Virus record (IMG/VR): IMGVR_UViG_3300017767_000004
Location: 2,589 to 66,588 of that record
Source of the DNA: a virus
DNA length: 64,000 nt
Strand: one strand, 5' to 3'
Of the stretch, positions 1-64,000 are shown piece after piece; positions within the stretch are counted from its first letter, which is position 1; each line of letters starts with the position of its first letter. The translations under genes and the position numbers were made by a program. Below the pieces are notes generated by a model. It did not search any database and had not been told where the DNA came from. It saw nothing but the letters and a program-made list of their open reading frames with translations.

Positions 1-2
1 TT

Positions 3-1853
3 CAAAAACCCAAAAATCGCTTCATAACGAATAATGTCGCAAGAACCTATGACAAACATTCAACAATTTGTAACTGTCAAAACTGCAATTCCAGCAGGTT
101 TGTACAAAAAGGGACTTATTCAAGAGTTTACGAAAAAAACCGCCGTCCACAAATGGTAGTAATTGGCGAAAATTTAATCCCAATGTCGCAATCAAACAAT
201 TATTCTGCATCATATGGTAATAATTTAGACGTTGAACAAAGCCGAGGCGTTGATTTAATGGTTTCATCCTTACTCGACAGACCAGACAATAGTTTAGGAA
301 AATCCGATGGAGGATTCTTACTTGCTGACGGAACTGGTTTTGGAAAAACAAGGCAATTACTTGCAGTAGCGGATCAGTGGAAAAAAGAAAGCCCGAAAAC
401 GGGCTTTTCATCTAAGGTTTTAATCGTCACTGAAAACAAGGAAACAATCGATGGTTCGTTCAAAAAAGATGCCGAAGCACTTGGTATCAACACCAATGAC
501 TTTCAATTTACGACCTACACCCAACTTGCCAGTAAAAGTAAAGCAGGCCAAAAAATTGCAGGAGAAAAATATGGCTTAGTTATTTACGATGAAGCTCATA
601 ACATGAAAAATCTGTTGTCTTTTCAATCAGAAGTTTCACGGTCAATCGAAACAGACAAAGCGATATTTGCAACTGCAACCCCATTAGATACAGCGCCAGG
701 TGCAGGTTATTTTCTTTCAAGAGTATCTGGAATAGATCAAGATACAATATTCAATTCACTGGGTATTGTAAAAGAGAAGGGTGCAGGAGGAATTGAATAC
801 TACACGTCTGTATTGCCACCGAGGACAATCAAGAAAAGGCTGGAAAATTACAGAGAGCAACTGATAGCATCAGGCCTTATGATGAGACGAACTTATCCTT
901 TCTATGGCAGCATCATTTCAAGTTCAGTAAAAATGAATAAAGGTGCTCAATTAGAGCAAGAAGACATTTTAGATTTTTACGCAAACCAAGTAAAAAAGTC
1001 AGCAACAACCTCCGGCCAACGCTCTCTTGAGTTGGCAAGGTGGGAAGAATACCAAAAAATCCCAACGATTTATGAAAACATAAAAACATCAATCGAGGAT
1101 GGAAAGCAAGTAGTTGTCGCTTTGAAAACATCAGGAGAGCAAACCTTCAGAGGATTGAAAGAAAACGACAATGAATTAACCAAAAAAGAAGCAGAAAGAC
1201 GCGTTAGAGAATTAAATGAGAGGTATTTTGTCAAGTCAGGTATTCGTCCAGGTCTTTTCGCTAAATTCAAAAATAAAAAAGACGGGTGGTATCCTGGTCG
1301 AAAGGGTGCTACTGAAATAATCATTGAAATGCTCGAAAGAGATGGGATTTCTTACTCGCAACTTACTCAATCTCAAAAAGGAATTAAAGAGGTCAATAAA
1401 TTTCAAAATGGCGAATCTCAAGTAATGATTATGACGCCACAAAGCGGAGGTACAGGAATAAACCTCGACGACTCGAATGGGGATAAACCACGCCATCTAA
1501 TCATAGGCTCGGCTGGTTGGGCAGGGGATAAAATGGAACAAATACTTGGCAGGGTTAGTCGGAAAACGACCAAATCACCTTCATTAGCAGAGATAGTTGG
1601 TCTCCAAGGCGGATTTGCAGACTCTCGCCAGAAAATAGTTTTGAAAGACAAACTATCGGCCTTACGTTCAATCACAGGTAAAACAGATGGAATGGAAATA
1701 GGCGGTGGAAAACTTGGTCTTTGGGACGATATTATATCTGACAGACAACTGAAAAGCATGAAATTGGGTTATGTGGTAAAACCACTAAATCCAATGATTG
1801 ATCCTCTCAATGTGCGCTCAAGCAGGAACGAACTCGAAGTATTTGGGGGCTAA
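3..1853 (+). CDS. Strawberry-notch-like SF2 helicase (AAA_34/Helicase_C_4 type), probably 5'-truncated by the window
   Basis: GGFLLADGTGFGKT (Walker A), YDEAHNMKN, ATATP, QSGGTGINL, WAGDKMEQILGRVSR. The frame is open from nt 3 to the ATG at 153, so the true start may lie upstream. Confidence 0.85.
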   Translation, partial: QKPKNRFITNNVARTYDKHSTICNCQNCNSSRFVQKGTYSRVYEKNRRPQMVVIGENLIPMSQSNNYSASYGNNLDVEQSRGVDLMVSSLLDRPDNSLGKSDGGFLLADGTGFGKTRQLLAVADQWKKESPKTGFSSKVLIVTENKETIDGSFKKDAEALGINTNDFQFTTYTQLASKSKAGQKIAGEKYGLVIYDEAHNMKNLLSFQSEVSRSIETDKAIFATATPLDTAPGAGYFLSRVSGIDQDTIFNSLGIVKEKGAGGIEYYTSVLPPRTIKKRLENYREQLIASGLMMRRTYPFYGSIISSSVKMNKGAQLEQEDILDFYANQVKKSATTSGQRSLELARWEEYQKIPTIYENIKTSIEDGKQVVVALKTSGEQTFRGLKENDNELTKKEAERRVRELNERYFVKSGIRPGLFAKFKNKKDGWYPGRKGATEIIIEMLERDGISYSQLTQSQKGIKEVNKFQNGESQVMIMTPQSGGTGINLDDSNGDKPRHLIIGSAGWAGDKMEQILGRVSRKTTKSPSLAEIVGLQGGFADSRQKIVLKDKLSALRSITGKTDGMEIGGGKLGLWDDIISDRQLKSMKLGYVVKPLNPMIDPLNVRSSRNELEVFGG

Positions 1854-1857
1854 AACA

Positions 1858-3468
1858 ATGCGTATTTATTATTCAAAAAGACAAATTTTCAATCCATTAA
1901 CGGGTAATGTGATACAAAACACATCGGGCAATCGCCAAAGTCTAATAAAACAAATCAATAGATTTAGAGAAACCAATTTTTTCAACTCTCAAGTTCTTGC
2001 AAACGCAGAAGCAATGAACCTAAGATTTATTGCAAAAGGTCGGCCAGATATTGAATCAAATGGAGCAAAGGTAAGCCGTTATTATGGTGGGAATAATTGG
2101 TATTCAGTTCACACATCAACAAAAAACGGCCTAAGCAGGTTAAATTCGAAAGACGCTGAACTGGTCGAATCACAACTTGAATCTGAAACAGGTCTGAATT
2201 GGGATACCGACTCAGTTAGCAACTTTGTTCATCACGCCAGAGGGACTGATGGATTCAATGAATCAATCGCACTGATCTCCTGTTCAAAAAATAAAATATG
2301 GGATGATGAGGAAGAAGCCAAAAAACAGTCAGATAGATATGGTACGGACAACAAAAATAGAAGCATAGCATGGGCTAAGAAAAATGTCATACCTCCCTCG
2401 GAGATGAAAGAGCGAGGATTATTCGGACAAGAGCTTGAAACTGCAGAATTTTGGTGGGATTCTCGAAAAGAAGAATATAACGGGCCTGATTTTGTACCGG
2501 TTGTTGAAGCAAAAGACGCCTATACATCACCTCTTTTCAAAAAAAGTGTTGATTGGGCATTGAATAGAAACATGCCTTTCCACATAATGTCAGCAAAACA
2601 CGGCGCTTTAGAGCCAAAAAACAACATTGAAAATTATGACCTAAAACTTGCTCAATTATCTAAGGCAAAAAGAAAGGAATGGGCCAAAGAAGTCATTGAA
2701 GACTTGAACTTAACCGGCTATCAGTCGAAAAAAAATCGCGTTAAACAGGTTTATCTTCTTGGAGGCAGGTTATATGTTGACACGTTGAAGCCAGAACTTG
2801 AAGCCCTTGGAATAGAAACAATCGAACCCCTCAAAGGTATGAGTATCGGTGAGAGACTTCAATATTTGAAAAATGACAATGAAGCCTTCGAAGAATTGGG
2901 CTTCCAAGAGCAAAAACCCCCAGGCTGGGATGATCCAAGAAAAGGAACTGCATCTTTGGAAACTATGAAAGAGGAAAAACGACGCGACCTTGTTTTGAAA
3001 TGGTCTTCTCCTAAATTAGAAAAACAACTCAAAAGGGTAAGAAATCAACTTACGACCACTAAGCAGGCACAAAGTACAGCCGAGGAAATAATAAGGAACT
3101 TTTCGAGAACTGATGTTTTGAGTTCAAGGAACTCGCCCGTAATAGGAATGCAAGTTCAAAATGAATTCAACGAAACAAACGGAAAAGAATTTGACAAAGC
3201 GATGAAACAACTCAAAAAAGGCAATAATAAGAAACTTAAACAAATGATGGAAAAGCGAGGCATCGACTTTGAGACCTATCAACGTGGAACTCGGATTTAT
3301 GGCGAGGATTTGAAAAAGAAAGCATATGTGAACTCTTTCACACGGCAAGAAGCATGGGATGCAGCAGTAAAATCAGCATTACAAACTTCAGAAAAACTTA
3401 GCAAAAAAGCAAATAAACTTAAAATTAAGGAAAGAGAGCTTCAATCAGCAATACAAAAGAATGCATAA
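1858..3468 (+). CDS. DUF6884 (YaaA-like) domain protein with C-terminal coiled coil
   Basis: ISCSKNK...AKDAYTSPLF...IMSAKHG..P...IENYDLKL...RKEWA...LLGGRLY...PLKGMSIGERLQYL matches the remembered DUF6884 pattern. ATG 1858 follows GGGGG. Confidence 0.7.
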   Translation: MRIYYSKRQIFNPLTGNVIQNTSGNRQSLIKQINRFRETNFFNSQVLANAEAMNLRFIAKGRPDIESNGAKVSRYYGGNNWYSVHTSTKNGLSRLNSKDAELVESQLESETGLNWDTDSVSNFVHHARGTDGFNESIALISCSKNKIWDDEEEAKKQSDRYGTDNKNRSIAWAKKNVIPPSEMKERGLFGQELETAEFWWDSRKEEYNGPDFVPVVEAKDAYTSPLFKKSVDWALNRNMPFHIMSAKHGALEPKNNIENYDLKLAQLSKAKRKEWAKEVIEDLNLTGYQSKKNRVKQVYLLGGRLYVDTLKPELEALGIETIEPLKGMSIGERLQYLKNDNEAFEELGFQEQKPPGWDDPRKGTASLETMKEEKRRDLVLKWSSPKLEKQLKRVRNQLTTTKQAQSTAEEIIRNFSRTDVLSSRNSPVIGMQVQNEFNETNGKEFDKAMKQLKKGNNKKLKQMMEKRGIDFETYQRGTRIYGEDLKKKAYVNSFTRQEAWDAAVKSALQTSEKLSKKANKLKIKERELQSAIQKNA

Positions 3469-3470: not shown

Positions 3471-3531
3471 TGTGTTAGAAATAAGTTTCCAAGGGTCGCT
3501 TTTCAAATATATGTTCTCTTTACCAATCTGC
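3471..3531 (+). promoter_or_regulatory. Bipartite promoter, copy 1
   Basis: TGTG at 3471, TTTTCAAA at 3500, ATG at 3532, no SD. Confidence 0.6.
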
Positions 3532-5106
3532 ATGAGAAGTAGGGTTGCTCTTGTAATTCTAATCGCACTAAGTCTGATTTCAGGCGTAGCCGTTGCAAAA
3601 GACAGTGACGGCGACGGCATTTCCAATGAAGAAGAGGATGCTAATGGTAATGGTGTAGTCGATGAAGGAGAAACTGATCCAAACAATGCTGATACGGATG
3701 GCGACGGATTTAATGACGGCGAAGACCCAAATCCAACTGAACCCGATAAAGGCGGTGGGCCACCACCTGATGAAGACCCCAAGGTTGGTGAAGGTGAAGA
3801 TTCAGACGGAGATGGTGTCGATGATGAATTTGATTCAGACCCCTTCGACCCTGATGCAGACGGAGATGGGCTTGAAGATGGCGAAGAAGATACAAACGGC
3901 AATGGAGAAGTCGATGAAGGCGAAACCGACCCAACCGATTCAGATACCGATGGTGATGGTGTCGGTGATGCAGAAGACCCTGACCCAACTGACCCATCTG
4001 TGCCAGGGGGCAGTGTCGATAGCGATGGTGATGGCGTCCTTGATGATTCAGACGAATTTCCCGACGATGATACTGAATGGCAAGATTCGGATGGCGATGG
4101 CGTAGGCGACAATTCCGACGCTTTCCCTGTCGATCCAAAAGAAACAACAGATTCCGATGGAGATGGTGTTGGAGATAACAATGATGACTTACCACTTGAT
4201 CCATCAGAAACAACAGATTCCGATGGAGATGGAGTTGGTGATAATGCCGATGCTTTCCCAAATGATGCTTCAGAAACAACCGACTCGGATGGCGATGGCG
4301 TAGGCGACAATTCCGATGCTTTCCCAGATGATGCTTCTGAAACAACAGATACGGATGGCGATGGCGTAGGAGATAATACCGATTTGTTCCCAAGCGACTC
4401 TTCAGAATCGAATGATGAAGATTTAGATGGAACAGGGGATAACTCTGACGCATTTCCAGGCGACTCTTCAGAATCGAATGACACTGATGGCGATGGCGTA
4501 GGCGACAATTCGGATATTGACATTGATGGCGATGGCATCAATAATACAGAAGACTCCACGCCTTATGATGAAGACGATACTGATGGCGACGGGGTTGGTA
4601 ATTCACAAGACCAAGATGACGATGGCGACGGAGTATCGGACGCAAACGATACTTTCCCATTAGATCCAAATGAAAGTTTAGATTCTGATGGAGATGGAGT
4701 CGGAGACAACGGCGATGCGTTTCCTAATGACCCTTTGAAATCTCAATCTCAATCAAGCTCTGTCAATGATGGATGCCCAAGCCCAACATCAGTCAACGGC
4801 TATTATCCTCTTTATCTCACACCTACATGCGCTGCTAATCACCCAGGCGGTAATGGTGGTTATCACAACCACACCTTAGCAGGGCAGGATTATTACATGC
4901 CAAACGGCCTTAATATGAATTCAAGTAATGGGCCTATTACACAATGGCATGGTGATTACGGGGTCAACGTAGGCTCTGGAGGCGACATATCTCTTGAAGA
5001 TGAAGACGGATATGATTGGCTTAGTCTGGTGATTGTAGCGATTCTTTTGCCCACTATACTATACGGGGTTCTTGGTTTAGTTTCTTCATCATACACAAGG
5101 AAGTGA
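3532..5106 (+). CDS. Secreted, C-terminally anchored TSP3 (thrombospondin type-3-like) Ca-binding repeat protein
   Basis: Signal peptide MRSRVALVILIALSLISGVAVA; many DxDGDGVGDNxDAFPxD repeats; C-terminal TM WLSLVIVAILLPTILYGVLGLV. Confidence 0.9.
   Translation: MRSRVALVILIALSLISGVAVAKDSDGDGISNEEEDANGNGVVDEGETDPNNADTDGDGFNDGEDPNPTEPDKGGGPPPDEDPKVGEGEDSDGDGVDDEFDSDPFDPDADGDGLEDGEEDTNGNGEVDEGETDPTDSDTDGDGVGDAEDPDPTDPSVPGGSVDSDGDGVLDDSDEFPDDDTEWQDSDGDGVGDNSDAFPVDPKETTDSDGDGVGDNNDDLPLDPSETTDSDGDGVGDNADAFPNDASETTDSDGDGVGDNSDAFPDDASETTDTDGDGVGDNTDLFPSDSSESNDEDLDGTGDNSDAFPGDSSESNDTDGDGVGDNSDIDIDGDGINNTEDSTPYDEDDTDGDGVGNSQDQDDDGDGVSDANDTFPLDPNESLDSDGDGVGDNGDAFPNDPLKSQSQSSSVNDGCPSPTSVNGYYPLYLTPTCAANHPGGNGGYHNHTLAGQDYYMPNGLNMNSSNGPITQWHGDYGVNVGSGGDISLEDEDGYDWLSLVIVAILLPTILYGVLGLVSSSYTRK
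3601..4735 (+). repeat. Coding TSP3-type repeat tract; ~66-bp (22-aa) period over ~4080-4520
   Basis: Recurring GATGGCGATGGCGTAGGCGACAATTC-like units encoding DGDGVGDN. Confidence 0.85.
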
Positions 5107-5113
5107 AAAATAA

Positions 5114-5722
5114 ATGTCGTACCAAGAAAGAGTTAGAGATTCCCCATTCGATTATTTTTCAGAATCAACAGAAGCAATTGCGGCTATTTTTCTCACCGTA
5201 TTTTTCTTATCAACTATATTCGTTTTGAGAAATTACTTCAAGACTTGGTTTACGACATTGTTCTGGTCAACCGTAGTGATCGTGCCGTTCCTTTCAAACT
5301 TCTATCATTTGTTTTATGGCGAAGGCTCAATGAAGGATTATGGTGGCGATGGCGACTTGCTTGATGTGTTTTCATCATCGACATGGGAAAATTTTGGATT
5401 TATTAGAGAGGATGGTGGCCTTGGAATTGGAGGCCCATTGTGGAACACATACGAAGTCACTATGCCTTTGCTGGTATTTTCTATTTACATTGTTGGTGCC
5501 TTTTACATGATAATGAGAAACGGATTGGATAATTTCAGAACTCAAACAGTCCGTTCACCTTTCTATTTGTCATTGGTATTCGGAGCAGTTTGGGGGATTG
5601 TGGTTTACGGATTCATTGCAGATGCTTCAGACAACGTTGAAATGTACTACTGGGATTTGGCATCCACCATCGCTTCAATGGTAATTTTTATACTGTTTTG
5701 GAATGAAAAAGATACCCTTTGA
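5114..5722 (+). CDS. Polytopic membrane protein (~5 TM), unknown function
   Basis: Several long hydrophobic segments; starts 7 nt after the upstream stop. Confidence 0.75.
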   Translation: MSYQERVRDSPFDYFSESTEAIAAIFLTVFFLSTIFVLRNYFKTWFTTLFWSTVVIVPFLSNFYHLFYGEGSMKDYGGDGDLLDVFSSSTWENFGFIREDGGLGIGGPLWNTYEVTMPLLVFSIYIVGAFYMIMRNGLDNFRTQTVRSPFYLSLVFGAVWGIVVYGFIADASDNVEMYYWDLASTIASMVIFILFWNEKDTL

Positions 5723-5873: not shown

Positions 5874-6254
5874 TCACGGCAATGTGTAAGATACAGGATT
5901 CCCCTTAATCTTCACCAGAAGGTTGTCATCAACAAACCTATTACACGAACGTTGCAGGGTTCTATGGTCACTGAAACCGCATTTAGTGTAATCTGTCAAG
6001 GGCGTAATGGTGCCATATTTCCTGCAATGCTCCATGACATTATGCAAGGTGATGATGTGCTCTCTTCTAAGAGAAATATCTCGAGGAAAGAGAATCATGC
6101 TAAATCGGGCTTGTTCCCTATCGGTCATTTCGACTATTTGTTGATTAAGAACCGAGATTAAACTTTCTTGATCGTTTACTCTTTTTTTCAAATTAGCAGC
6201 CTCGGTTCTCCAACCTGCAAGTTGGAATCTTTCAGTTTGGCTTGTCTTAGTCAA
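5874..6254 (-). CDS. Coiled-coil plus C-terminal winged-helix-like protein
   Basis: Heptad segment LKKRVNDQESLISVLNQQIVEM; C-terminal HRTLQRSCNRFVDDNLLVKIKGNPVSYTL; TTG start overlapping the upstream TGA, after GGAGG. Confidence 0.6.
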   Translation of the reverse strand: MTKTSQTERFQLAGWRTEAANLKKRVNDQESLISVLNQQIVEMTDREQARFSMILFPRDISLRREHIITLHNVMEHCRKYGTITPLTDYTKCGFSDHRTLQRSCNRFVDDNLLVKIKGNPVSYTLP

Positions 6255-6508
6255 GCAGCAATCCTCCAAATCGGGCTAACCTTTGACCGGCCAGTGAAAG
6301 TTTTGAAGGGGACTGAACCTACTTGTTCGAATGATTTGTCTCTAAGTAAAGAGCGTAATTGATACATTGTAATCCCGTCTGCCCAAGTTTTATTGTATTT
6401 GTCAAGGAGAGCTTGTTGGTCTAATCTGCCGTGTAGGTCTAAAATCGACAACAACCGTTCTTTAGGCTTTCTTGTACCGTAATGTTTCTGCATTCTCTCT
6501 GGAATCAT
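6251..6508 (-). CDS. Small winged-helix protein (archaeal DUF3860-like pattern)
   Basis: ITMYQLRSLLRDKSFEQVG...IWRI; SD GGAGGTGG upstream. Confidence 0.55.
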   Translation of the reverse strand: MIPERMQKHYGTRKPKERLLSILDLHGRLDQQALLDKYNKTWADGITMYQLRSLLRDKSFEQVGSVPFKTFTGRSKVSPIWRIAA

Positions 6509-6855: not shown

Positions 6856-9777
6856 ATGAAGAATGCCTTCTCTGCCTTAATGATGACCTTTGTTATGCTA
6901 CTTTCTCTGTCAGCAGTAGCCGTTTCTGCGGCTATTCCAGATGGCGATGGAACTAACGGAATTGACCGAAACCCGACCTCGCCAGAACAGGACGTAAGCG
7001 TTGTAACACGCACAATCGACATGGCTTCAGCGACGTCAAGTATGGAGGTGACCTTCGATAGCGGAATGATTCGAAACTCGAATCCCGCAGCTTCAACTGC
7101 AAACCTTGCAGATTTGTACAGCCCACACAAAATGAAGTGGGACGTTACTACTGCAATTCCTAACACTGGCCCTGGTGCCTTTGCCCAATACGCATTGCCT
7201 TCCGATCCAAGCGAACTTTCTCATGGGGCAGACCATGGGCTAATGGTTGACATTTCGGATACTGCTGAAGTCACGCTAATCGATATTGAGTCCTCTTCTC
7301 AAGTCAAAACTACTTTCCAAAATTGGTATGGCAGTCTTGACCGAACTACTCCACATGGCGTAGGAGATTCAATTTCAACTGCAATCCTCGGAGAATGTAA
7401 CGACGTGGGCTCACGCCTTATCTGCAACATGAATGCGGATTTTGACGGTGATGCTTCAAACGGTAATGATGGTATCGATGATGGATTGACAACTAACATG
7501 ATGGTTGCACCATCCAGCGGTGGCGGAGATGCTGCGTATGGATATGGCCTTTTGGCAGAAGGTTCAACCGCAGACAAGTATTTCGGAATTGATTTCCAAG
7601 TGGCACACAATGCTACACTTATCGTTGATGGAGTTGCCCTGGCAGAAGGCAACACACAAAACGTCCAAGAAAATGCAGAAGTCATCATTCGATGCACAGA
7701 TTTGAAGTGTACCGAAGACGACATTGTTCTATCTGTTCCGACTGCATACGATGCATCAAATTGGGATAATGTAAATTTGATTCTACCAGACGATGCAGAA
7801 ATTTACAATTCAACAAGCCGTATTTCAGTTTACGATCAAACCACATTCAAGTTGACCTTTGGTGTTGACGCTTCGCACACATCAAACGCAACCGCGTCAG
7901 GGGTTCTTTGGGACCCATCAGTAATCATTGAAACAAATGAGCCTGGTATGCGTATGGGGAAAATCCATGATGGAGAAATGTCATGGTGCGATGCAAGTTG
8001 GTTCTTGGCAAAGTGCAACGGCGCTGAGAGCTTCGACGGGAACACAACCGATGGTGCTGACGGAATGATTATGAGAATCACCCTCCCACTCGAAACCTTC
8101 TGGAGCATGGCTGCTTGGGGCGGATATGACAACACAATGTTGCAAATCACCCACCCTAACACAGACTCCTGTTTCAACGGTCAAGTCAACACTCACATTT
8201 ACACAGAGGCAGGTTATGATGCTCTTGTTTCTAAGAATTCAATGATAAATTACTTGCTTTCGGGCAACTACTACTCAGTAGGAGACTTTGGAGTTGCAGA
8301 CTCTTCAGCATCCTTCGGCACAAGTGCCGTTGACTATTGTACTGGCTCAACATCAGGAATCGTAGCCACTGACATTAAGTTGGACGCACTCGCATCTATC
8401 ACACAAAACCCATTGCTTGTTTCTTACAACAATGGCATGTATGATATTGCAGAACGAGTCTTCGACTTCTATGTGGTCGTTTCCCCCGAGGTCGGTACAA
8501 TGAACGCTGGCTCTCCTTCGTTCAATGTCAACATGGAAGGCGGAGACGCACCAAAGTTGAAATTCACACACAGTACAAACCAAGATCCACTTGCAAATCA
8601 ACCTGGTATTACTCGAACGACAGATACTACAAATCAAACAAACCCTGCTTTCGCAACACCATATGTAATGCATTACTCAGGAATCACTCCTTCAGACAAT
8701 GTTATTCAGGGCCGTGATTTAGTTGGTTTCGAACAAGCAGGTGGCGACTATGGGCCTGAATTCATGGGAATCCAAGATGCATCAACATGGGACGCAAGAA
8801 CCGACGAGGCATCATACGCACCAACAGAAAGCACTCCACGTTCAACCGTTGAATGTGGCGTTGCAGTTGCAGATGCAGACATGGTGGAATCCTCAATCGA
8901 AATTTTCACAAATGTTGACACAAGCAAACATACTGGAGAAAACAATGAATCAGAATGGAAAGCATACGGTGTTAGAAATTCAAACAACTCACTTTGGGGA
9001 ATGGGTCCATTCATCGGAGCAAACACAGGTAATCTAAGTGTTGACAACAAAGAAGTCAACACAGGTTCGAGCGCCGTTTCATACACAGGCGTTTTCGTTA
9101 ATGGAGACAACTACAAGGCAGTTTGCACATTCAAGTTTACTTCTTATGATGTTCAAGCCGAAAACTTCACAACACAAACTCTAACCTACACAACACAGTT
9201 CTCTGCCGCTGAAGACGGAGATTACAACTCTGGCGGTGGCGGAGATGTTGGAGATGATGATGGCCTCTTTGATGACCTCGATGGATACGACTACTTGATT
9301 ATCGGACTTGCACTTGCAATCGCAATTCTTGGCGGTGTCATGCTATTTCGTGGCGACCGAATGAATAATGGATTTGATTGGTTCGATGATCGCTTTGCAA
9401 TGGTTCTCTTTGGCGTGGGTATTATCCATGCCTGGATTGCTCATCACTTCTTCTATGACGTGGCCGACCCACTGAGCGAAGAATGGGCTCTTGTCATTGG
9501 TTCAGCCGGATACATTGTTATCGGGCTTTCGATTTATCTCTATGGAGGTGGAAACACAACACGTTCAATGCGAAACATGCGCTACTTGGTCGGAGGATTG
9601 CTTTTGATTCTCTTGGGAGTTCCAACTGCGCTCGAAGGATTCACAGGTGGAGACTTCGAAGACGTCTCCTGGACATTCCCAGTTTACGATGTTATTGCTT
9701 TTGTCGGTAGTGCCATCGGAACTATTCTATTGGCATCAGGGCTTGGCATTCTATTCCGAAGGGAGGGGATGAACTGA
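6856..9777 (+). CDS. 973-aa secreted surface (glyco)protein with C-terminal multi-TM anchor
   Basis: Signal peptide; acidic S/T/G/N-rich ectodomain with Cys pairs and many N-x-S/T sequons; ~5 C-terminal TM helices. Confidence 0.85.
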   Translation: MKNAFSALMMTFVMLLSLSAVAVSAAIPDGDGTNGIDRNPTSPEQDVSVVTRTIDMASATSSMEVTFDSGMIRNSNPAASTANLADLYSPHKMKWDVTTAIPNTGPGAFAQYALPSDPSELSHGADHGLMVDISDTAEVTLIDIESSSQVKTTFQNWYGSLDRTTPHGVGDSISTAILGECNDVGSRLICNMNADFDGDASNGNDGIDDGLTTNMMVAPSSGGGDAAYGYGLLAEGSTADKYFGIDFQVAHNATLIVDGVALAEGNTQNVQENAEVIIRCTDLKCTEDDIVLSVPTAYDASNWDNVNLILPDDAEIYNSTSRISVYDQTTFKLTFGVDASHTSNATASGVLWDPSVIIETNEPGMRMGKIHDGEMSWCDASWFLAKCNGAESFDGNTTDGADGMIMRITLPLETFWSMAAWGGYDNTMLQITHPNTDSCFNGQVNTHIYTEAGYDALVSKNSMINYLLSGNYYSVGDFGVADSSASFGTSAVDYCTGSTSGIVATDIKLDALASITQNPLLVSYNNGMYDIAERVFDFYVVVSPEVGTMNAGSPSFNVNMEGGDAPKLKFTHSTNQDPLANQPGITRTTDTTNQTNPAFATPYVMHYSGITPSDNVIQGRDLVGFEQAGGDYGPEFMGIQDASTWDARTDEASYAPTESTPRSTVECGVAVADADMVESSIEIFTNVDTSKHTGENNESEWKAYGVRNSNNSLWGMGPFIGANTGNLSVDNKEVNTGSSAVSYTGVFVNGDNYKAVCTFKFTSYDVQAENFTTQTLTYTTQFSAAEDGDYNSGGGGDVGDDDGLFDDLDGYDYLIIGLALAIAILGGVMLFRGDRMNNGFDWFDDRFAMVLFGVGIIHAWIAHHFFYDVADPLSEEWALVIGSAGYIVIGLSIYLYGGGNTTRSMRNMRYLVGGLLLILLGVPTALEGFTGGDFEDVSWTFPVYDVIAFVGSAIGTILLASGLGILFRREGMN

Positions 9778-49819: not shown

Positions 49820-49824
49820 TTTAA

Positions 49825-54913: not shown

Positions 54914-54917
54914 CCCA

Positions 54918-56107: not shown

Positions 56108-56217
56108 ATGTTTACGTTTGCTTGAATTGTGGCTCTGCCTTGGAGTACTCACCGCTTGTTGTAAAATGCCCATCCTGTGATTGGATCGAATTAGGAAAAG
56201 GTGATTTGGATGGATAA
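56104..56217 (+). CDS. Zn-ribbon micro-protein resembling archaeal RNA polymerase subunit Rpo12/P, not in the ORF track
   Basis: MNVYVCLNCGSALEYSPLVVKCPSCDWIELGKGDLDG*; ATGA overlap. Confidence 0.6.
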   Translation: MNVYVCLNCGSALEYSPLVVKCPSCDWIELGKGDLDG

Positions 56218-56605
56218 GAGATACAAAGTTGACCAACAAACTATTGACAGCATGAGGCTAATGCGATTGTCTGGAATAAGTTACGCCAAGATTGGTGCAG
56301 CGCATGGAGTATCGGGCTCAACTGCTCTGTATTGGATAGACGAAAAACAACGTCGAAAGCAACGGGAGAAAAATGCTAAGAGAACATATTCTCCAAAAGA
56401 CCTCAATCGAATTTCAAGGGACATGCAGAAGAGAAGAGATAATTGGAGAGAAAATCCAGATATGGTTTTACGCCATACTATTCAATCTGCAAAGGATGAA
56501 AAAAGGATCAATCGGAAAACTGTTCGAGGTATGACGATGAAAGATGCAATGAAAAAATTGAAGTCTGGAGAGCTTAAAACTCCAAATAACAAAATGAGGG
56601 ATTGA
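56210..56605 (+). CDS. HTH DNA-binding protein
   Basis: TIDSMRLMRLSGISYAKIGAAHGVSGSTALYWI; SD GGTGA. Confidence 0.75.
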   Translation: MDKRYKVDQQTIDSMRLMRLSGISYAKIGAAHGVSGSTALYWIDEKQRRKQREKNAKRTYSPKDLNRISRDMQKRRDNWRENPDMVLRHTIQSAKDEKRINRKTVRGMTMKDAMKKLKSGELKTPNNKMRD

Positions 56606-56606
56606 A

Positions 56607-56879
56607 TTGATAGAAGACGGAATTACAAATGGAAATGGTGTTGTAAGCCTGGGCGAAGGGGTATATGCTGCCACCCATGTTTACAATCGAATACGGTTGC
56701 CCATCGAGTTATGTCCAAACAAATCATGGGTTGATGTAAAAGAAATGCTGAATATTACGGTCAATGATTCCGATTCTCAGGCAATATTGTACAAACTTGA
56801 CCATGATGACTATGATGTGATTGTATTGGTCGATGGTTCTGGTGCTCGCTGGATTAAGAAATGGAGTGGTTGGGAATGA
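56607..56879 (+). CDS. Hypothetical protein
   Basis: TTG start after GAGG; operon context. Confidence 0.6.
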   Translation: MIEDGITNGNGVVSLGEGVYAATHVYNRIRLPIELCPNKSWVDVKEMLNITVNDSDSQAILYKLDHDDYDVIVLVDGSGARWIKKWSGWE

Positions 56880-57289
56880 ATGATTACGGTACAGACGTAA
56901 CTTGCGAAAAGTGGCTTGACATCAGCAATTGGGATTCTTCGAGAAAATTCTTTGCGGTTTGCCCTGGCTGTGGGGCTGGTGATATAATCGAGCAACCTGA
57001 AATGTGCGCCTGGTGTGGATTCAAATTAAGAGACGCAGCGAGGCTTCAATTGAGAAGTATTTTGATTAAAGAAATGGACAGGTTTGCTGGAAGGTCCACG
57101 TTGATGTATGATGATATACTTGATTCGTTGGAAGCAAAGATTGTATTTAATGAAAAGCAACTGGTAAAGACTTGTCATTCTTGTGGCGGCCAAAGAATAC
57201 CAGAAGGAATAGAATATTTGCATTATGTGCCAAAAAACGGTTTGTGTATGTTTGAACTTGATGAATGTGAAGATGCAGAGGTTGATTGA
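56876..57289 (+). CDS. Multi-Zn-finger protein
   Basis: CPGC, CAWC, CHSC and H...C motifs. Confidence 0.7.
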   Translation: MNDYGTDVTCEKWLDISNWDSSRKFFAVCPGCGAGDIIEQPEMCAWCGFKLRDAARLQLRSILIKEMDRFAGRSTLMYDDILDSLEAKIVFNEKQLVKTCHSCGGQRIPEGIEYLHYVPKNGLCMFELDECEDAEVD

Positions 57290-57541
57290 ATGGATCAAGA
57301 CTATTTTCATCGTAGAGGCCACCTTTATCGTACATTATTCAGTAATGCACCTTCAAGAATTAAATGTAGGATTTGCCAAAAAAGTTTCAAAAACCCTTTG
57401 TTTGAAGGCAGTTCTATAATCACCAAGGTATGCGAAGCATGTTCTTCAGAAATGATGCCCAAGACTAAAAGAAAAATCCAGGCTAAGATGAATAAACATA
57501 TTCAAGCTCCTAATTCCATTTATGGTTTGGCAAGGCGGTGA
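57290..57541 (+). CDS. Zn-finger protein
   Basis: CRIC...CEAC. Confidence 0.65.
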   Translation: MDQDYFHRRGHLYRTLFSNAPSRIKCRICQKSFKNPLFEGSSIITKVCEACSSEMMPKTKRKIQAKMNKHIQAPNSIYGLARR

Positions 57542-57546
57542 TTTAA

Positions 57547-57945
57547 GTGGATGCAATCAAATGTAATCAATGTGATAAGATTGGAATACAAAGTCAAGAA
57601 GAAGGAGTTTGTATTCTCTGCAAAATGGCCGATAAGCCTTTGAGGAATCCAAACGTAAATGGTTCTGGTAATTTTATCTGTCAAGCCCATGGTTGTAATT
57701 TACCGCTTAATACAGGAGAGTTAGTAATCAATTTAGACAGTTCTGTTCTTGAAGAATTTGGCCCTGAGCAAGTTCAAGCGGCAACACGCATGATTGTGAA
57801 AGTTATGTTCGCTGAAAAGGGTATGCTCTGCCCTGGGTGCATGACTAAATATGTTGGAAATGCCCTCGATGAAGTTGGTTTTTCTCTGATAGTGGCTATG
57901 CATCAGCATGATAAACGCCAGGAGTTCGAGGCGGAATGGCAATGA
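57547..57945 (+). CDS. Multi-Zn-finger protein
   Basis: CNQC, CILC, CQAHGC, CPGC; GTG after GGTGA. Confidence 0.7.
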   Translation: MDAIKCNQCDKIGIQSQEEGVCILCKMADKPLRNPNVNGSGNFICQAHGCNLPLNTGELVINLDSSVLEEFGPEQVQAATRMIVKVMFAEKGMLCPGCMTKYVGNALDEVGFSLIVAMHQHDKRQEFEAEWQ

Positions 57946-58148
57946 CTAATGTTGTAAAAAGGGACGGCAAGACCTTCTTGAAATTGGCTGACCAATTGGC
58001 TTATTCAGAGGTTGATCCTACTGCTAAAAGATTTCTAAATGAAGAAGGATATTCTATTGTTTTTTCAAGAAAGGAAACCAAAAAATATGATGGTTTTTAC
58101 TTGACTACATATTCCCTTTTTGGATGGAGAGGTGGGAAAAATGTTTGA
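57942..58148 (+). CDS. Small hypothetical protein
   Basis: ATGA overlap; SD GAGG. Confidence 0.6.
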   Translation: MTNVVKRDGKTFLKLADQLAYSEVDPTAKRFLNEEGYSIVFSRKETKKYDGFYLTTYSLFGWRGGKNV

Positions 58149-58563
58149 AGAAATAGACGAAATATTGCAGGAAAATACGAGAAAGATAAGTGCATTGATA
58201 AATTCCGATTCAACGAGAAGATGGTATTGGTCAACATTGCAAGCGGAAGTAATGCATGTAATGACTCAAACAATTGAAGAATTGCTCAAGTTTGATAACC
58301 CTACTGAAGCAATGCGTGTTTATCTGGATAGATTGTCCTACGGTATGCAATTGGTTGACAGAAGAAACCCCTCGAAATGGAGCATGAGGCAGGTTGACAT
58401 AGCCTTCAACGGAGGGCCAATTTCAACATCTATTATCCCAAAAAGCGATGGAGAGCTTGAACGTGTAGAGAATAAGCCCAATGTGCAAGACTTAGTTGAG
58501 GCGTTCCGAGATCAATTAGAATATTCAGGGTCATTTGACGGAGCCGATTCAGATGAGTCTTGA
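58141..58563 (+). CDS. Hypothetical protein
   Basis: SD GAGGTGG; operon context. Confidence 0.7.
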   Translation: MFEEIDEILQENTRKISALINSDSTRRWYWSTLQAEVMHVMTQTIEELLKFDNPTEAMRVYLDRLSYGMQLVDRRNPSKWSMRQVDIAFNGGPISTSIIPKSDGELERVENKPNVQDLVEAFRDQLEYSGSFDGADSDES

Positions 58564-58720
58564 AGAATTTGATTGGTCACTTGATATGTTTGTCAAATGC
58601 CTAATTTCATGGTTTATCTTACCGTTTGTCATTTGCGCTTGGCCTGTATTGCATTGGAAATACCAATTATCCCCTTCGAGGAATTCTGCCGCCAGCCCTT
58701 CTGAGCATAGCGACCCTTGA
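58553..58720 (+). CDS. Small single-TM protein
   Basis: CLISWFILPFVICAWPVL; 3' end overlaps the GP88-like gene. Confidence 0.5.
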   Translation: MSLEEFDWSLDMFVKCLISWFILPFVICAWPVLHWKYQLSPSRNSAASPSEHSDP

Positions 58721-59773
58721 ACCATTTACTGTTCTTGCGTATGCTCCAGGTGTGTAAACGGCATAAGCCGTGACAGTTTTACCGCCTATGCTCGGTCTAT
58801 GCTCAATAACTCTGGCTTTCCGGCCACCATCCCTAAGTAAATTAGCAGTTTTTTCTGCTACCTTCTTTGATACTTTTGATTGGATTGGGACAAAATCCTC
58901 GCCCTTATCGAATCTCCTTTGGCCGATAATTGAAGGGTCCCTTAATGCCTTTTTCTTGTATTGTTCTAAATTAGTTGTGTCGATGATTCCATTGCCATAA
59001 AGGACAAACCCAGTAGTGTCATAGATAGCCTGCCCCTTGGCAGACAAACCTACGACTGATTTTGGTGGATCAAGAAAACGTAAATCGGAGTCATCGCCGT
59101 CAATTACTTTCCAAGTTAATCCACCTGGTCCTGTCCACTTTGTAGGAACTTGATTTTTGCCAAAAACAACTGCGACGTTTTGTTTCCTATCCATTGCTTG
59201 AGCCACAAACTTATCGTTGTCTTCAGAACGAGAAAATGTCAAAGAATAGTTTGGTAGTGGGTTAATATCTCGGTTCGGTACTTTTGTGTAATCGTAGAAT
59301 TCAACTTCTGGAAAATATTCGAATATTGTTTTCTTTTCTCCGTTTCCATCGTCAAATTCTATTCGTTCCCATCGAATATCCGATGTTCCATTTAATCTAA
59401 ATACAGGGGTCATCCCTCGATTCTTTGCAGTTTTCATCTTAGATTCTATTTCTTTCTTTAGCCGAAGCATGAATGCCTCTTTGTCTTCATTGAAAAATTT
59501 GGTTCTGTTAATACGTGCATTTTGGACTGTCGATGTGCAGCCCAAGCCAGAAGTATTCAAACAAGCTGAAGCACAACCTTTACTGGCTGAAGAGCAAGTA
59601 TTTACTCCAGATAGCGTTGCTGGGGCTAAGTGTAAAATGGCTGTTTGATAACCATACTTTTCGCCCTTCAGCGTTTTGTAATTAGAAGTCCCGAGTAACG
59701 ATGATGTACCCCACTTGTCCGACATTTCCTTCGTGGAAATAACTGGCTTGGATGATTTGGATTTGTCCACCAT
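58667..59773 (-). CDS. GP88-like (radical-SAM-related) phage protein with C-terminal shared module
   Basis: HLAPA...NTCSSASKGCASACL...VFRLNGTSD..WE...FYDYTK...YSLTFSRSE...NVAVVF...VIDGDDSDLRFLD...VVGLSAKG; tail RRFDKGEDF...AEKTANLLRDGGRKARVI...YAVY. Confidence 0.85.
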   Translation of the reverse strand: MVDKSKSSKPVISTKEMSDKWGTSSLLGTSNYKTLKGEKYGYQTAILHLAPATLSGVNTCSSASKGCASACLNTSGLGCTSTVQNARINRTKFFNEDKEAFMLRLKKEIESKMKTAKNRGMTPVFRLNGTSDIRWERIEFDDGNGEKKTIFEYFPEVEFYDYTKVPNRDINPLPNYSLTFSRSEDNDKFVAQAMDRKQNVAVVFGKNQVPTKWTGPGGLTWKVIDGDDSDLRFLDPPKSVVGLSAKGQAIYDTTGFVLYGNGIIDTTNLEQYKKKALRDPSIIGQRRFDKGEDFVPIQSKVSKKVAEKTANLLRDGGRKARVIEHRPSIGGKTVTAYAVYTPGAYARTVNGSRVAMLRRAGGRIPRRG

Positions 59774-60356: not shown

Positions 60357-61736
60357 TCAAATCAGCCCTGCGGTCAAATCCCATAATACGGGCTTCTTAT
60401 TTCTGGTTGGTAGTTCTTTTGCTAAGGTTCTGGAAAGATTCTTTATTCTTTCAGGGCAGTTATCAAACTTATTTCTGTGTCCCCAGCGTTGTAATGGTCC
60501 ACCTCCACCCATTCTTTCTTTTTCTGCCCCTCCTTTACCATACAAAACTTCTGAAATTGCTGCCCACTGCATACTCGCACCTCGCATTATTTGTCGGTTG
60601 ATTCTTTCTCTAACCTGTTCGATGTTTTCTGTATCGGGCGTTATTCCGATGAATGAATGGTATTCAGCCATCTTTTCTTCATCTTCAATATTCTTTTCAA
60701 TTAACTGAATTTCTTCTTTTGCTAAGTTATTGCATCTCATCAAAACACATTCGGGAGGCCACGGCGCACCTGATAATTCAAGGGATTTAGACTTCTTCAA
60801 ATCCTCTCGCCATTCCATCCAAGTTGGAGGTTTTGTTTCATAGAAGGTTAGCCATGTTCCTTGATCCCCTTGGTCTTCATTCAATTGAGTCATCGCCAAC
60901 CCTGGGTCTTTCCTTTTCATTTCTGGAATTATTGCTCGGTAAACTTCTCTAAAGGTGGCGATTGGCATGTCTTCGAGTCTTTCTCTAAGTTGCCTCAGTC
61001 CTGAAAATCGGTCATATGTCAGCCCATCCATGTCCCTGCCCCTCTTAGCCGCCATCTTTGCTTGAACCATATTCATTATTGTCCACACGTTGTAGTGTCT
61101 GGAACGAGTCAATTTTTCTGCCCACTTTTTTTGGTCTTTCGAAACTGCACCTGACCTCAAAGCAAGTGGTACTTCGTCATAAACTTCGAGCAGTGGAAAG
61201 TTTGCCTCTTGACGGTCTGTTACGAACCAATCAGGACACCTAAACCATCCTGGCTCTGCTGGGACATAGCCATTTACATCGCCGTAAACATATACCCGAG
61301 GGTCGCCGTATTCGAACGACAACTTCCATTCTTTCGCTTCATTCAGCCATGTTTCGGCCATCCCATAACTAAAAATCGATTTTCCTTGGCCTCTATCGCC
61401 AAAAACCCAAAGAATTTCGCACTTCCTTTCGCATGTAAAACCAACCTCAAGTAGTCTTGAGGGATAAAGGATAAGTGGGGCGTTATTCTTTGTACCACTA
61501 CCATCCAATGTATTATCTCTACCTACTGGAATGATTTTGGTCCAAGAAGCCCAGCGATTGAAAAACCATTTCAAGGTGGTCATATCTGTCCCTCCTTGGC
61601 AATATGTTCTGTAAGCCCTCCGAAGTGTTGCAAATATTTCTGGTGGCATTCCTCTATCGATACAAGCTCTATTGAAGTCGTCCCAACTCAAGAATTTCTC
61701 TCCGCCTGATTTAGCCATTTTTACACCCGCATACAT
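60357..61736 (-). CDS. P-loop ATPase, FtsK/HerA superfamily (A32/Zot/pleolipovirus-type pattern)
   Basis: Walker A GDRGQGKS, Walker B LEVYDE, then TRSRH.N.WTI..MVQ (Arg-finger/Gln pattern). Confidence 0.75.
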   Translation of the reverse strand: MYAGVKMAKSGGEKFLSWDDFNRACIDRGMPPEIFATLRRAYRTYCQGGTDMTTLKWFFNRWASWTKIIPVGRDNTLDGSGTKNNAPLILYPSRLLEVGFTCERKCEILWVFGDRGQGKSIFSYGMAETWLNEAKEWKLSFEYGDPRVYVYGDVNGYVPAEPGWFRCPDWFVTDRQEANFPLLEVYDEVPLALRSGAVSKDQKKWAEKLTRSRHYNVWTIMNMVQAKMAAKRGRDMDGLTYDRFSGLRQLRERLEDMPIATFREVYRAIIPEMKRKDPGLAMTQLNEDQGDQGTWLTFYETKPPTWMEWREDLKKSKSLELSGAPWPPECVLMRCNNLAKEEIQLIEKNIEDEEKMAEYHSFIGITPDTENIEQVRERINRQIMRGASMQWAAISEVLYGKGGAEKERMGGGGPLQRWGHRNKFDNCPERIKNLSRTLAKELPTRNKKPVLWDLTAGLI

Positions 61737-61837: not shown

Positions 61838-62758
61838 TCATTCCTCCTGGTCACTGCCATTTTTAATCAAATCTCCCTCGTTAAGTTCTGCCAATTCAAG
61901 TAGTTGATCCTCAGTTAAAACCGAGTCCAGGCTTTCAAGAATAGTTTCTGTATCCATTTGTTCATCTAAGTTAGATTCAGGCAAGCAATCTATGCAACTT
62001 TCAACCATGTACATTCCGTCTTCGTCTTCAGCAACAACATAAGGTTTGACCATATTGCAATATGGGCAACGTCCTGTTGGTATGTCCTGGGGAGTTGGTC
62101 GCAAGTGGTTGCCTTCTTCTTCATCCATAGCCAATTCTCGCATCATTTCTTGGTCTGCAATCATTTCCCTCATCGCTGCATTATCTGCAACTCTCTGCTC
62201 ATGGGCCATTGCTTCGGTTCTCCTTCTTTGCATTTCTGCTTCTGCCGATGAAAGCACCGTTGATAATGATTCTTTGTCGTGTTTGTTCTTGGAAAACAAT
62301 TTGGCTAAATCCTCTGTGTTAGCGCCCATCTGAGTCAATTGCATAAGGGACTGGGCAAGTTGAATTTGAAGTTTGGCTGTCGTTTCTGCGAGTTCCGCCT
62401 GCCTTATTGCTGAAGCCATCGCTATATTTTTTGGCTCGAGGTATTCTAATTGCTGCCTCGACATACGCATTGCAACTGCTTGAGCATAATCTCCTAAATC
62501 ATCAGGCCACATTGCCCAATGGATCAATATACCATTTTCTAAGGGCATCCCTACTTGTTCCAAAAAAGAATGTTCTGCCGATGCTAATTTTAACCAAAGG
62601 ATATGTTTAGCCCTTGGAGGGAGATATGACCATGAATCCGTCATAGAGAGAATCATGGTGTCAATAAATCTAAACTGATCGTTTAGCCTATCGGCAACGG
62701 GAACCATGAACAAATCTCGGCCACTTCTCGGTTGAGGTCCTGATGGTCCGTTATTCAC
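61838..62758 (-). CDS. Coiled-coil protein with Zn ribbon and acidic tail
   Basis: Long heptad region; CPYC...CIDC. Confidence 0.7.
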   Translation of the reverse strand: MNNGPSGPQPRSGRDLFMVPVADRLNDQFRFIDTMILSMTDSWSYLPPRAKHILWLKLASAEHSFLEQVGMPLENGILIHWAMWPDDLGDYAQAVAMRMSRQQLEYLEPKNIAMASAIRQAELAETTAKLQIQLAQSLMQLTQMGANTEDLAKLFSKNKHDKESLSTVLSSAEAEMQRRRTEAMAHEQRVADNAAMREMIADQEMMRELAMDEEEGNHLRPTPQDIPTGRCPYCNMVKPYVVAEDEDGMYMVESCIDCLPESNLDEQMDTETILESLDSVLTEDQLLELAELNEGDLIKNGSDQEE

Positions 62759-62762: not shown

Positions 62763-63134
62763 TCAACCCTCCAGGTAATACCAACCGTTGATTATAGTTG
62801 CAAATGAAATCCATAGCACGTAAGGAACGAGAAGATATGCTGCTGTCGAGTTGTATGGATAAATTAACACAACGTATGCAATGGAAAAGGCAACCATGCC
62901 GATTATGATTAAGAATGACATGAAATAGTCTGACTCATCAAAGAATGACGCCCATATCAAATTCAAAGCGAGTTGAAATCCAAACAAAACAAAGATTTCA
63001 GCAGGTATTTTTTCTCTGTCATTCCAAGCTACTACAATTGAAAAAAGCATTGTAGCATAAAGGAAAAACCATACAGGTCCAAATATCCAAGAAGGAGGTT
63101 GAAACCAAGGCTTGTTTGCAGCATCGAAACTCAA
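62763..63134 (-). CDS. tspO: TspO/MBR tryptophan-rich sensory protein, lacking the first TM helix
   Basis: KPWFQPPSWIFGPVW..LY; FQLALN.IW; LLVPY..W..FAT.IN; TTG start directly after the upstream TGA. Confidence 0.9.
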   Translation of the reverse strand: MSFDAANKPWFQPPSWIFGPVWFFLYATMLFSIVVAWNDREKIPAEIFVLFGFQLALNLIWASFFDESDYFMSFLIIIGMVAFSIAYVVLIYPYNSTAAYLLVPYVLWISFATIINGWYYLEG

Positions 63135-63830
63135 TCAACCAACTCCATCGATTTGATCCATTTGACCTGCAACATATCTTTGTGAAATCTCTTCGAGTTG
63201 TTGTTCCCTAAATCCTTGTCGCATTGCGAGGTCTTCCTCGGCAGCAATTTGGCCTCTTGACATAGAACCTGCCGTAGTCCTAAACTCAATGTCAACATCT
63301 TGTCCGTCAATCTCAAGCACATTTGCAGTTATGTGAACGATGTTTCTATATCTGGATGCTATGTCTTTCCTAACGCGTAATATTTTCTTATCCCTTCGAG
63401 TCATTATGAAGTGTCCTCCTGTGTCCTCAATTCGCCTTAAAGTGGTGATTCTCGGAATACCTGGGTCGTTCTCCACCCAATGTAGTTTAGGCCGTGAATT
63501 TTGAAGTACAAAGGACGCAATCATTCCAATAGTAGTGAAAAATCCAATGTAAATCATTATTTCGAATCTGGAGAAGGTAGGCGTTGCGAAAAATGATTCC
63601 ATAGGGCCGTAAAACCATGCCCCAAATGCTCCAAGCGGGACGGCAATCCATCCCAAAATAAGTATAATACCTGCAAAAATTAGGCCAGTAGCCCAACCCT
63701 CAATCCTTGCACCCTCTCTGTCTCCTGGGTTCGATTGGTCTTGTTGTTGCTGTGGTTGAGCAGGCATTCCGAGCAATTGTTGCATTAGCATTGGATCATC
63801 AAATAACATATCTTCTTCTGGCGGTTGCAT
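63135..63830 (-). CDS. Two-TM membrane protein with soluble C-terminal domain
   Basis: ATG 63830 after GGAAGGAG; two hydrophobic helices. Confidence 0.7.
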   Translation of the reverse strand: MQPPEEDMLFDDPMLMQQLLGMPAQPQQQQDQSNPGDREGARIEGWATGLIFAGIILILGWIAVPLGAFGAWFYGPMESFFATPTFSRFEIMIYIGFFTTIGMIASFVLQNSRPKLHWVENDPGIPRITTLRRIEDTGGHFIMTRRDKKILRVRKDIASRYRNIVHITANVLEIDGQDVDIEFRTTAGSMSRGQIAAEEDLAMRQGFREQQLEEISQRYVAGQMDQIDGVG

Positions 63831-63831
63831 T

Positions 63832-64000
63832 TTACCATCTCCTTCCATAACGGTTTTGTCTATCCCAATATTCTTTTTCCTGTTGCTCTCTCAATCTTCG
63901 TTCTCGTCGTCGTTGAGACCATCCAGGCATATTGTCTGTGCCATCGTCTTTACGTTGTCTCAGAGATTGTTCTCTAAATTTATTGTAAAAAGCAAAGCAT
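63832..64000 (-). CDS. 3' end of a hypothetical gene starting beyond the window
   Basis: Open frame ...AFYNKFREQSLRQRKDDG...RRRERRLREQQEKEYWDRQNRYGRRW*. Confidence 0.55.
   Translation of the reverse strand, partial: CFAFYNKFREQSLRQRKDDGTDNMPGWSQRRRERRLREQQEKEYWDRQNRYGRRW

Follow-up and report, generated by a model that had tools for sequence, protein, structure and literature searches.

All virus families listed for Poseidoniales (Marine Group II archaea) in the 2025 summary of the virus taxonomy committee (ICTV) are head-tailed. Magroviruses and other Poseidoniales-associated Caudoviricetes (Magrovirales, Adrikavirales) are marine, head-tailed and tens of kb in size (PMC5434244, PMC12451623). 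The Charybdis elements are also marine but non-tailed; their description reports enrichment in vesicle and small-virus fractions, integration of some of them in Poseidoniales genomes, and genomes that are small and circular, with a double beta-sandwich protein as their hallmark (bioRxiv 10.1101/2025.08.03.668216). In the literature searched no other non-tailed Poseidoniales-associated element was found. Here we analyzed a DNA stretch of 64,000 nucleotides (IMG/VR virus record IMGVR_UViG_3300017767_000004, positions 2,589 to 66,588), hereafter the window. It resembles the Magrovirales and Adrikavirales in habitat, size and putative host order, but none of their hallmark genes was found in it, and the Charybdis elements are set apart from it by their description. 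We consider it probable that the window represents a new and widespread viral lineage that is non-tailed, contains membrane, has a motor of the FtsK/HerA type and probably infects archaea of Marine Group II.

The window has a G+C content of about 41% throughout, a steadily climbing GC skew and no tRNA gene that we could find. Fifty-seven open reading frames (ORFs) were accepted as genes, and protein searches covered approximately 62 window proteins. The heliorhodopsin encoded in the window is recorded on a contig of 69,127 bp, and contigs L023 and L024 match the window end at 99.9-100% identity and add about 2.5 kb beyond it. The window is therefore approximately 93% of a double-stranded DNA genome of about 69 kb, about 5 kb of which lie outside. 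Three IMG/VR relatives, each rated 100% complete by both IMG/VR and CheckV, have a gene order in common with the window: G001 (66,372 bp, its heliorhodopsin gene split across the contig ends), G002 (65,449 bp, with an exact terminal repeat of 77 bp) and G003 (63,413 bp, with an exact terminal repeat of 123 bp). Genomes of this family are 63-72 kb long and circular or terminally redundant. The original prediction, an earlier reading of the DNA letters, had proposed a genome of more than 64 kb; the window is indeed part of a larger genome, but one only slightly larger, and at about 69 kb, with relatives of 63-66 kb, no hidden flank can hold the missing hallmark genes. Terminase, portal or cellular genes had been foreseen as a flank that would overturn the prediction. 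The complete relatives lack them too: Pfam searches of 59 further proteins from these three genomes recognized PAPS reductase, TusA, DUF5754, DUF3860, two weak DUFs and nothing else.

DNA nearly identical to the window was present in at least ten samples labelled viral metagenome and also in seawater metagenomes, and relatives were recovered from Tara 0.1-0.22 µm fractions. The element is thus a discrete genome whose ends are defined (the three relatives of 63-66 kb show terminal repeats or circular permutation), and it is recovered in the virus size fraction; its uniform size, defined ends and presence in that fraction indicate a packaged genome. In agreement with the virus-like nature first proposed, no cellular housekeeping family was found by Pfam among all window ORFs. 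The element had also been called undescribed, and this agrees with what we found: hardly any similarity was seen to the phages and archaeal viruses of GenBank (50,697 records), and no paper describing the family was found, although the literature covered was incomplete and this is not proof. In tblastn searches of those records the SNF2 helicase gave no match, the DNA ligase one weak match and the DUF932 protein six weak matches; the GP88-family protein was the only window protein with relatives there, at 41-48% identity and in bacterial phages.

No capsid (HK97 or other), portal, terminase, tail or DNA polymerase family was recognized by Pfam or PHROGs in the window proteins, or by Pfam in the 59 proteins of the three complete relatives, as the original prediction had stated for the window. 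The best conserved gene of the family encodes an ATPase (60357-61736, minus strand; Walker A GDRGQGKS, Walker B VYDE), a candidate packaging or translocation motor; five relatives in IMG/VR are 62-67% identical to it. The sequence family is very small, with 13 matches at E ≤ 0.001 among 1.84 billion representative proteins, and profile searches gave no match in Pfam, PHROGs or PDB sequences. An AlphaFold2 model built on 12 sequences was confident (pLDDT, the predicted local distance difference test, 82.8; pTM, the predicted template modelling score, 0.83). Foldseek matched it in the PDB to HerA, EccC, FtsK and B204 of Sulfolobus turreted icosahedral virus 2 (STIV2), and in BFVD to A32-like packaging ATPases of giant viruses, to virophage and corticovirus ATPases and to a Nitrosopumilus spindle-shaped-virus protein. 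VirB4 and TcpA were also among the best matches in the Foldseek and VIA comparisons. Terminase appeared in no structural match list, and the C-terminal third of the model is helical, without a nuclease domain. The model thus places the ATPase in the FtsK/HerA superfamily and not in the terminase fold. This superfamily includes the packaging NTPases of membrane-containing tailless viruses as well as the VirB4/VirD4 translocases. Compared with STIV2 B204 and the A32-like ATPases of Varidnaviria, the ATPase is twice as long and has additional N- and C-terminal helical domains.

An operon closed by the ATPase gene is present in the window and the relatives alike; in the relatives its order is: a ribbon-helix-helix (RHH)/coiled-coil/Cys-rich protein of 411-473 amino acids (aa), two small soluble proteins, TspO, a 296-aa protein, a 237-aa protein, a 306-aa protein, the ATPase and GP88. 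The 296/237/306/ATPase genes are adjacent in G001 and in the distant provirus L048; the window, G002 and G003 keep their relative order, with one or two further genes in between. In the window, all on the minus strand, the 306-aa product (61838-62758; 52-70% identity) is acidic, helix-rich on a crude propensity scale and carries a C-terminal CxxC...CxxC; a short TspO/MBR homologue of 123 aa follows (62763-63134; Pfam 3.2e-28), then the 237-aa protein with two predicted transmembrane (TM) helices and a soluble C-terminal domain (63135-63848; 61-72% identity) and the 3' end of the gene of the 296-aa type-I membrane protein (63832-64000), which starts about 720 nt past the window end and is conserved at 50-64% in the relatives and at 32% in L048. 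This 296-aa protein carries a signal peptide and a beta-rich ectodomain, is anchored by a C-terminal TM helix and has a basic tail. Besides this operon, the conserved core comprises a pair of giant surface proteins anchored in the membrane, along with several small multi-TM proteins. Membrane proteins together with the ATPase, with no recognizable capsid gene, are the real signature of the family.

Several further attempts were made to characterize core proteins. The 411-473-aa protein of the relatives (L008:3006-4265, L010:15930-17351, L015:885-2120), which heads the ATPase operon in G003 and lies upstream in G001 and G002, was considered as a capsid protein and rejected, as it has a ribbon-helix-helix-like start followed by coiled-coil and Cys-rich regions. 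Its gene is not in the window and may lie in the missing 5 kb or so; the protein is a candidate regulator, replication or partition protein. Neither the 296-aa protein (best 0.78) nor a conserved 623-aa core protein, whose stored ESM model was poor (pLDDT 0.41), obtained a usable match in Atlas feature searches, and a crude Chou-Fasman profile singled out no beta-rich core protein.

Among described viruses the Pleolipoviridae, typified here by Halorubrum pleomorphic virus 1 (HRPV-1), show a similar combination: they have no capsid protein and encode a P-loop ATPase, small multi-TM proteins and a spike-like protein that carries a signal peptide and is anchored C-terminally. They differ in infecting haloarchaea, in having genomes of 7-17 kb as opposed to 63-72 kb, and in lacking the repertoire of tagged proteins described below, rhodopsins and giant surface proteins. 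When the ATPase family was compared with HRPV-1 VP8 by hhalign, the probability was 2.9% and the P-loop alone was aligned, with no homology detected; on this comparison and on genome size the element falls outside the Pleolipoviridae.

The region 6856-52389 contains 32 genes, all on the plus strand, with gaps of -70 to +100 nt and about 99.7% coding sequence, which bears out the single-strand, tightly overlapped block originally described. On the other hand, calling this block "structural-type" was a label and not an observation, since the block includes a DNA ligase, a heliorhodopsin and a rhodopsin-like protein. A hidden Markov model (HMM) detected a basic module of about 57 aa (hereafter the tag; consensus R..G..F....K..A..A..R..G.NARVIP...G..VY) in 21 proteins of the window, and each relative has 17-22 proteins that carry it. 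It is N-terminal in some proteins and C-terminal in others and is attached to heliorhodopsin, DNA ligase, GP88 and many proteins of no recognized function; beyond the tag, the relatives lack counterparts of many of these proteins. The predicted fold is beta-beta-alpha-beta-beta, with a weak likeness to ring-building-motif and SPOR domains, and a profile search of PDB sequences gave nothing significant (best 1hv8, E 0.32, and the CwlC SPOR domain, E 0.59). The tag was also found in one Poseidoniaceae metagenome-assembled genome (MAG) that holds a binned relative. The fusion of tag and heliorhodopsin occurs in at least 24 clusters (formed at 90% identity), at 54-88% identity and on contigs of up to 72 kb. 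We read the 45-kb block as a fast-changing repertoire of about 21 tagged proteins interleaved with conserved membrane proteins, and not as a morphogenesis block of head-tail type. The tag probably addresses proteins to a common site, for example the particle interior or the viral DNA.

Tagged proteins occur along this block as follows. Five proteins with an N-terminal tag are encoded at 16610-23946, with little or no BLAST similarity to the relatives outside it; the last also has a C-terminal DUF5754/Tlr6F domain (1.2e-12). They are followed by the heliorhodopsin (24002-25141; Pfam Heliorhodopsin 1.8e-65 at residues 126-377, tag at residues 11-67), by seven tag-bearing proteins of 146-873 aa (25153-36115) and by four more at 37296-43437, in three of which the tag is C-terminal. 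Of the four proteins encoded at 45056-52389, where tag matches were also obtained, the last is an ATP-dependent DNA ligase with a C-terminal tag (49825-52389; DNA_ligase_OB_2 3.6e-15, PHROG ATP-dependent ligase 4.5e-30). The N-terminal 230 aa or so of the product of 27443-30064 show a weak HsdS/Methylase_S-like domain (Methylase_S 1.5e-5, sub-threshold). In each relative several different proteins start with this domain (45-50% identical over about 75-155 residues), which makes it a second shuffled module besides the tag. The C-termini of the products of 22231-23946 and 34352-36115 have the DUF5754 (Tlr6F) domain and are both matched by one protein of a relative (G003 59021-59596); this domain is not diagnostic, as it is known from phages, giant viruses and polinton-like viruses.

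We infer that the virion is enveloped or pleomorphic, or contains an internal membrane. In such a cycle the viral membrane proteins would be inserted into the host membrane, the ATPase would drive the genome into a particle that contains lipid (a vesicle, enveloped or pleomorphic, or else a particle with an internal membrane), the giant surface proteins would mediate attachment or entry, and the 57-aa module would address tagged proteins to their common site. Some points speak against this interpretation. No capsid or nucleoprotein was identified, so that the particle type is unproven, structure prediction having covered two proteins; remote HK97 or double-jelly-roll proteins could escape Pfam and PHROGs; and FtsK/HerA-type ATPases also drive conjugation and secretion, so that a non-viral transfer element has to be considered. 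A more ambitious version, which we regard as speculative and doubtful, is that the window is the founding member of a new high-rank lineage, in no known realm, of enveloped Marine Group II viruses whose virion carries a changeable kit of about 20 proteins (DNA ligase, GP88, heliorhodopsin and many unknowns) addressed by the shared 57-aa module and possibly loaded or recognized by the FtsK/HerA/EccC-like ATPase. If so, infection would deliver a ready-made enzymatic and light-sensing toolkit into the host.

The presence of a FtsK/HerA (A32/B204-like) ATPase, as in packaging by Varidnaviria- and Singelaviria-type viruses, would also be explained if the element were an icosahedral tailless virus with an internal membrane, its jelly-roll capsid too divergent for recognition and the ATPase its A32/B204-type packaging enzyme. 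Varidnaviria-type tailless viruses have a jelly-roll capsid, but none was recognized here and no capsid family matched in Pfam or PHROGs; the genes adjacent to the ATPase encode helix-rich or membrane proteins, not beta-rich soluble ones, and the large ectodomains and the cytoplasm-facing heliorhodopsin tag would fit an outer envelope better. Prokaryotic viruses of this kind have genomes of 10-31 kb, and 63-72 kb is several times larger. This alternative is unlikely, though worth keeping in view. A highly divergent head-tail virus (Caudoviricetes), with capsid, portal and terminase escaping sequence profiles, would agree with a genome size typical of tailed viruses, with the long same-strand block of late type, with the phage-associated families GP88, DUF932 and DUF3846, and with the Atlas feature neighbours of the ATPase, which are mostly labelled Uroviricota and in one case terminase N-terminal domain. 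We nevertheless find it most improbable, given that no terminase, portal, capsid or tail match was obtained in the window or in three complete relatives and that most block proteins are not conserved among relatives, unlike head and tail genes. Furthermore, the only recognized ATPase besides the SNF2 helicase is of the FtsK/HerA class, without a nuclease domain, and a head-tail packaging machine is therefore unlikely; the original statement that the element differs from the tailed magroviruses is upheld to the extent that it looks non-tailed.

The structural matches to EccC, VirB4 and TcpA raise instead the possibility of something akin to a plasmid, carried by vesicles or by an apparatus of conjugation or secretion type, with the ATPase acting as a VirB4/VirD4/EccC-like translocase and the tagged proteins as its substrates. 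Pfam searches of the window found neither the partner components of VirB4, VirD4/TcpA/TrwB and EccC translocases nor any further part of a conjugation or secretion system, and no relaxase or replication initiator. The element also behaves as packaged DNA would: genomes of uniform size that bear terminal repeats suggest that it is packed into particles, and the DNA recurs in viral-fraction metagenomes. Such an element is accordingly a very unlikely explanation, and a non-tailed, membrane-containing virus is preferred.

As to the host, when the ATPase profile was compared with one genome for each of 185,579 species, the sole match lay on a contig of 5.6 kb in a MAG of Candidatus Poseidoniaceae recovered at Station ALOHA (G006). 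This MAG also holds a contig with a tag-heliorhodopsin fusion and 11 tag matches on five more contigs, that is, at least seven small contigs of a close relative, indicating that a whole fragmented relative was binned with it. A second line of evidence is L048 (Logan contig SRR12463106_3439, 56.8 kb, G+C 66%), an integrated element with the 296/237/306/ATPase quartet that ends in a tyrosine integrase and tRNA-Ile(GAT), its attachment site. Its ATPase is about 31% identical to that of the window and its homologue of the 237-aa protein 23%; it encodes a homologue of the 306-aa protein next to the ATPase, a 711-aa relative of the 973-aa giant protein and a sequon-rich 626-aa surface protein. Along its full length the L048 tRNA-Ile shares 97% identity with its counterpart in Poseidoniales genome G011, and next to it lie a gene for a 199-aa protein (58-70%) and an aminotransferase gene (56-59%), both of which neighbour this tRNA in several Poseidoniales genomes. 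The tRNA and its syntenic flanking genes indicate that the wider lineage integrates into a Poseidoniales-like chromosome.

On these grounds Poseidoniales (Marine Group II) are the host we favour for this family, with some reserve. The Thermoplasmatota (Poseidoniales) host first proposed therefore gains from the binning in G006 and the integration of L048, but some gene affinities are bacterial. Several observations count against an archaeal host: L048 is only distantly related (about 31% ATPase identity) and has no tags, so that the link is indirect; binning in one MAG is a single observation; and 300 other Poseidoniales genomes gave no match to the ATPase, the tag or the heliorhodopsin. The nearest named cellular heliorhodopsins, at 44-48% identity, all belong to Acidimicrobiia or Acidimicrobiales bacteria, and the nearest GP88 relatives are in bacterial phages. 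The nearest cellular relatives of TspO come from assorted bacteria (36-44%), and no host can be traced from it. The same kind of virus might accordingly infect a monoderm bacterium such as a marine Acidimicrobiia, with which strong Shine-Dalgarno use and many GTG/TTG starts would be compatible, as would the lack of heliorhodopsin in the 300 Poseidoniales genomes. An identity of 44-48% is, however, too low to show recent capture from a host, and a bacterial host leaves aside both the distant relative integrated beside Poseidoniales-type genes and the close relative binned in a Poseidoniaceae MAG; we regard it as unlikely but deserving of attention.

Marine Group II archaea rank among the most numerous microorganisms of the surface ocean and are uncultured. 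If they are infected by this tailless, membrane-rich lineage of 63-72 kb, it would be a second major kind of predator or parasite for them, and large non-tailed archaeal viruses would not be limited to extreme habitats. For virome pipelines that depend on hallmark genes of head-tail viruses the family is also a caution, and it offers tractable oddities: a heliorhodopsin fused to a targeting module, a shortened TspO and one module on about 21 proteins with no other relationship. Members of the viral TspO family are 123-128 aa long compared with 152-159 aa in cellular TspO, and its Pfam match begins at profile position 24; the first helix appears to be missing.

The remaining window genes were annotated as follows. 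A SNF2/ResIII-type helicase gene, its 5' end cut by the window start, occupies 3-1853 on the plus strand (Pfam SNF2-rel_dom 1.5e-9, ResIII 8.6e-8; PHROG DNA helicase 3.7e-18), with a 736-aa homologue in G003 at 58% identity. On the same strand it is followed by a DUF6884-domain protein (1798-3468; Pfam 2.7e-28) and, at 3472-5722, by a secreted membrane-anchored protein and a protein with three predicted TM helices. The first of these has one weak TSP3-like repeat, a sub-threshold Pfam match (TSP_3, E 0.0013; 18.8 bits against a cut-off of 25) and the only trace of the TSP3 repeats previously reported. Two small conserved basic proteins, candidate regulators (pI 8.7 and 10.2; 28-57% in three relatives), are encoded on the minus strand at 5874-6508, divergent from the big block. 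The block begins with two giant secreted proteins of 973 and 1799 aa and a small multi-TM protein between them (6856-15753, plus strand). The giant proteins have a signal-like N-terminal TM segment and multi-TM C-terminal anchors of 3-4 helices, are conserved at 25-48% in the relatives, and are candidate surface spikes. Surface proteins of the element had been described as rich in N-x-S/T; the large ones contain 7-11 such sites per 1000 aa, close to an estimate from composition made with no control run, and the claim did not hold. Directly after the largest surface protein, a small, very basic protein of 116 aa (15725-16075, plus strand; pI 11.4; 38-52% in all relatives) may be DNA-condensing.

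Interleaved with the tagged proteins, on the plus strand, are two small multi-TM proteins (36203-37302; 42-56% conserved), the second with a Gly-zipper-like C-terminus (E 0.0016, sub-threshold), and a group at 43421-45046 (38-55% conserved) comprising small proteins with three and two predicted TM helices, a small Cys-rich protein and a degenerate type-1 rhodopsin-like protein with seven TM helices (Bac_rhodopsin E 0.0045, sub-threshold). In all, 14-16 window proteins have predicted TM helices, in line with the 15 or so membrane proteins counted earlier. Beyond the block, a DUF932 protein (53421-54215, minus strand; Pfam 6e-7; about 50% conserved) precedes a plus-strand cluster of small soluble proteins at 54248-58563, several of them Cys-rich (Zn-ribbon-like, from Cys counts) or helix-turn-helix-like, which are candidate early or regulatory genes (DUF3846 7.3e-7; PHROG sigma-factor-like match E 0.0018). 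The GP88-family protein with a C-terminal tag is encoded at 58667-59773 on the minus strand (Pfam GP88 2e-42). PHROGs added to Pfam only the helicase, the ligase and a few families of unknown function. The product of 52876-53430 (minus strand) and one protein of a relative gave weak matches to DUF7571 and DUF7576 (E 0.005 and 0.0007), which are archaeal Pfam families; this is a lead only.

Archaeal-style promoters had also been proposed. Ahead of many transcription-unit starts stands the motif (A)AGTGTG with an A/T-rich stretch behind it (3469, 6792, 23947, 31796, 36142, 38056, 44332 and 45046, and on the minus strand 61754 and 6579), and two of the copies, at 31796 and 45046, agree almost completely over 13-14 nt and are some 50 nt away from the likely ATG that follows. 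Spacing to starts is inconsistent elsewhere, and a scan of the window for a promoter-like 10-mer pattern gave 58 matches against 62 expected, not above chance, so that such promoters are not established. In contrast, the prokaryotic Shine-Dalgarno sites were confirmed: cores precede 19 of 56 starts, compared with 2.6 ± 1.5 at random positions, and many starts are TTG or GTG. Finally, two proteins of the relatives have no place in the window: a PAPS-reductase-domain protein (L015:2203-2949) and a large protein with a TusA sulfurtransferase domain (L006:15364-17796).

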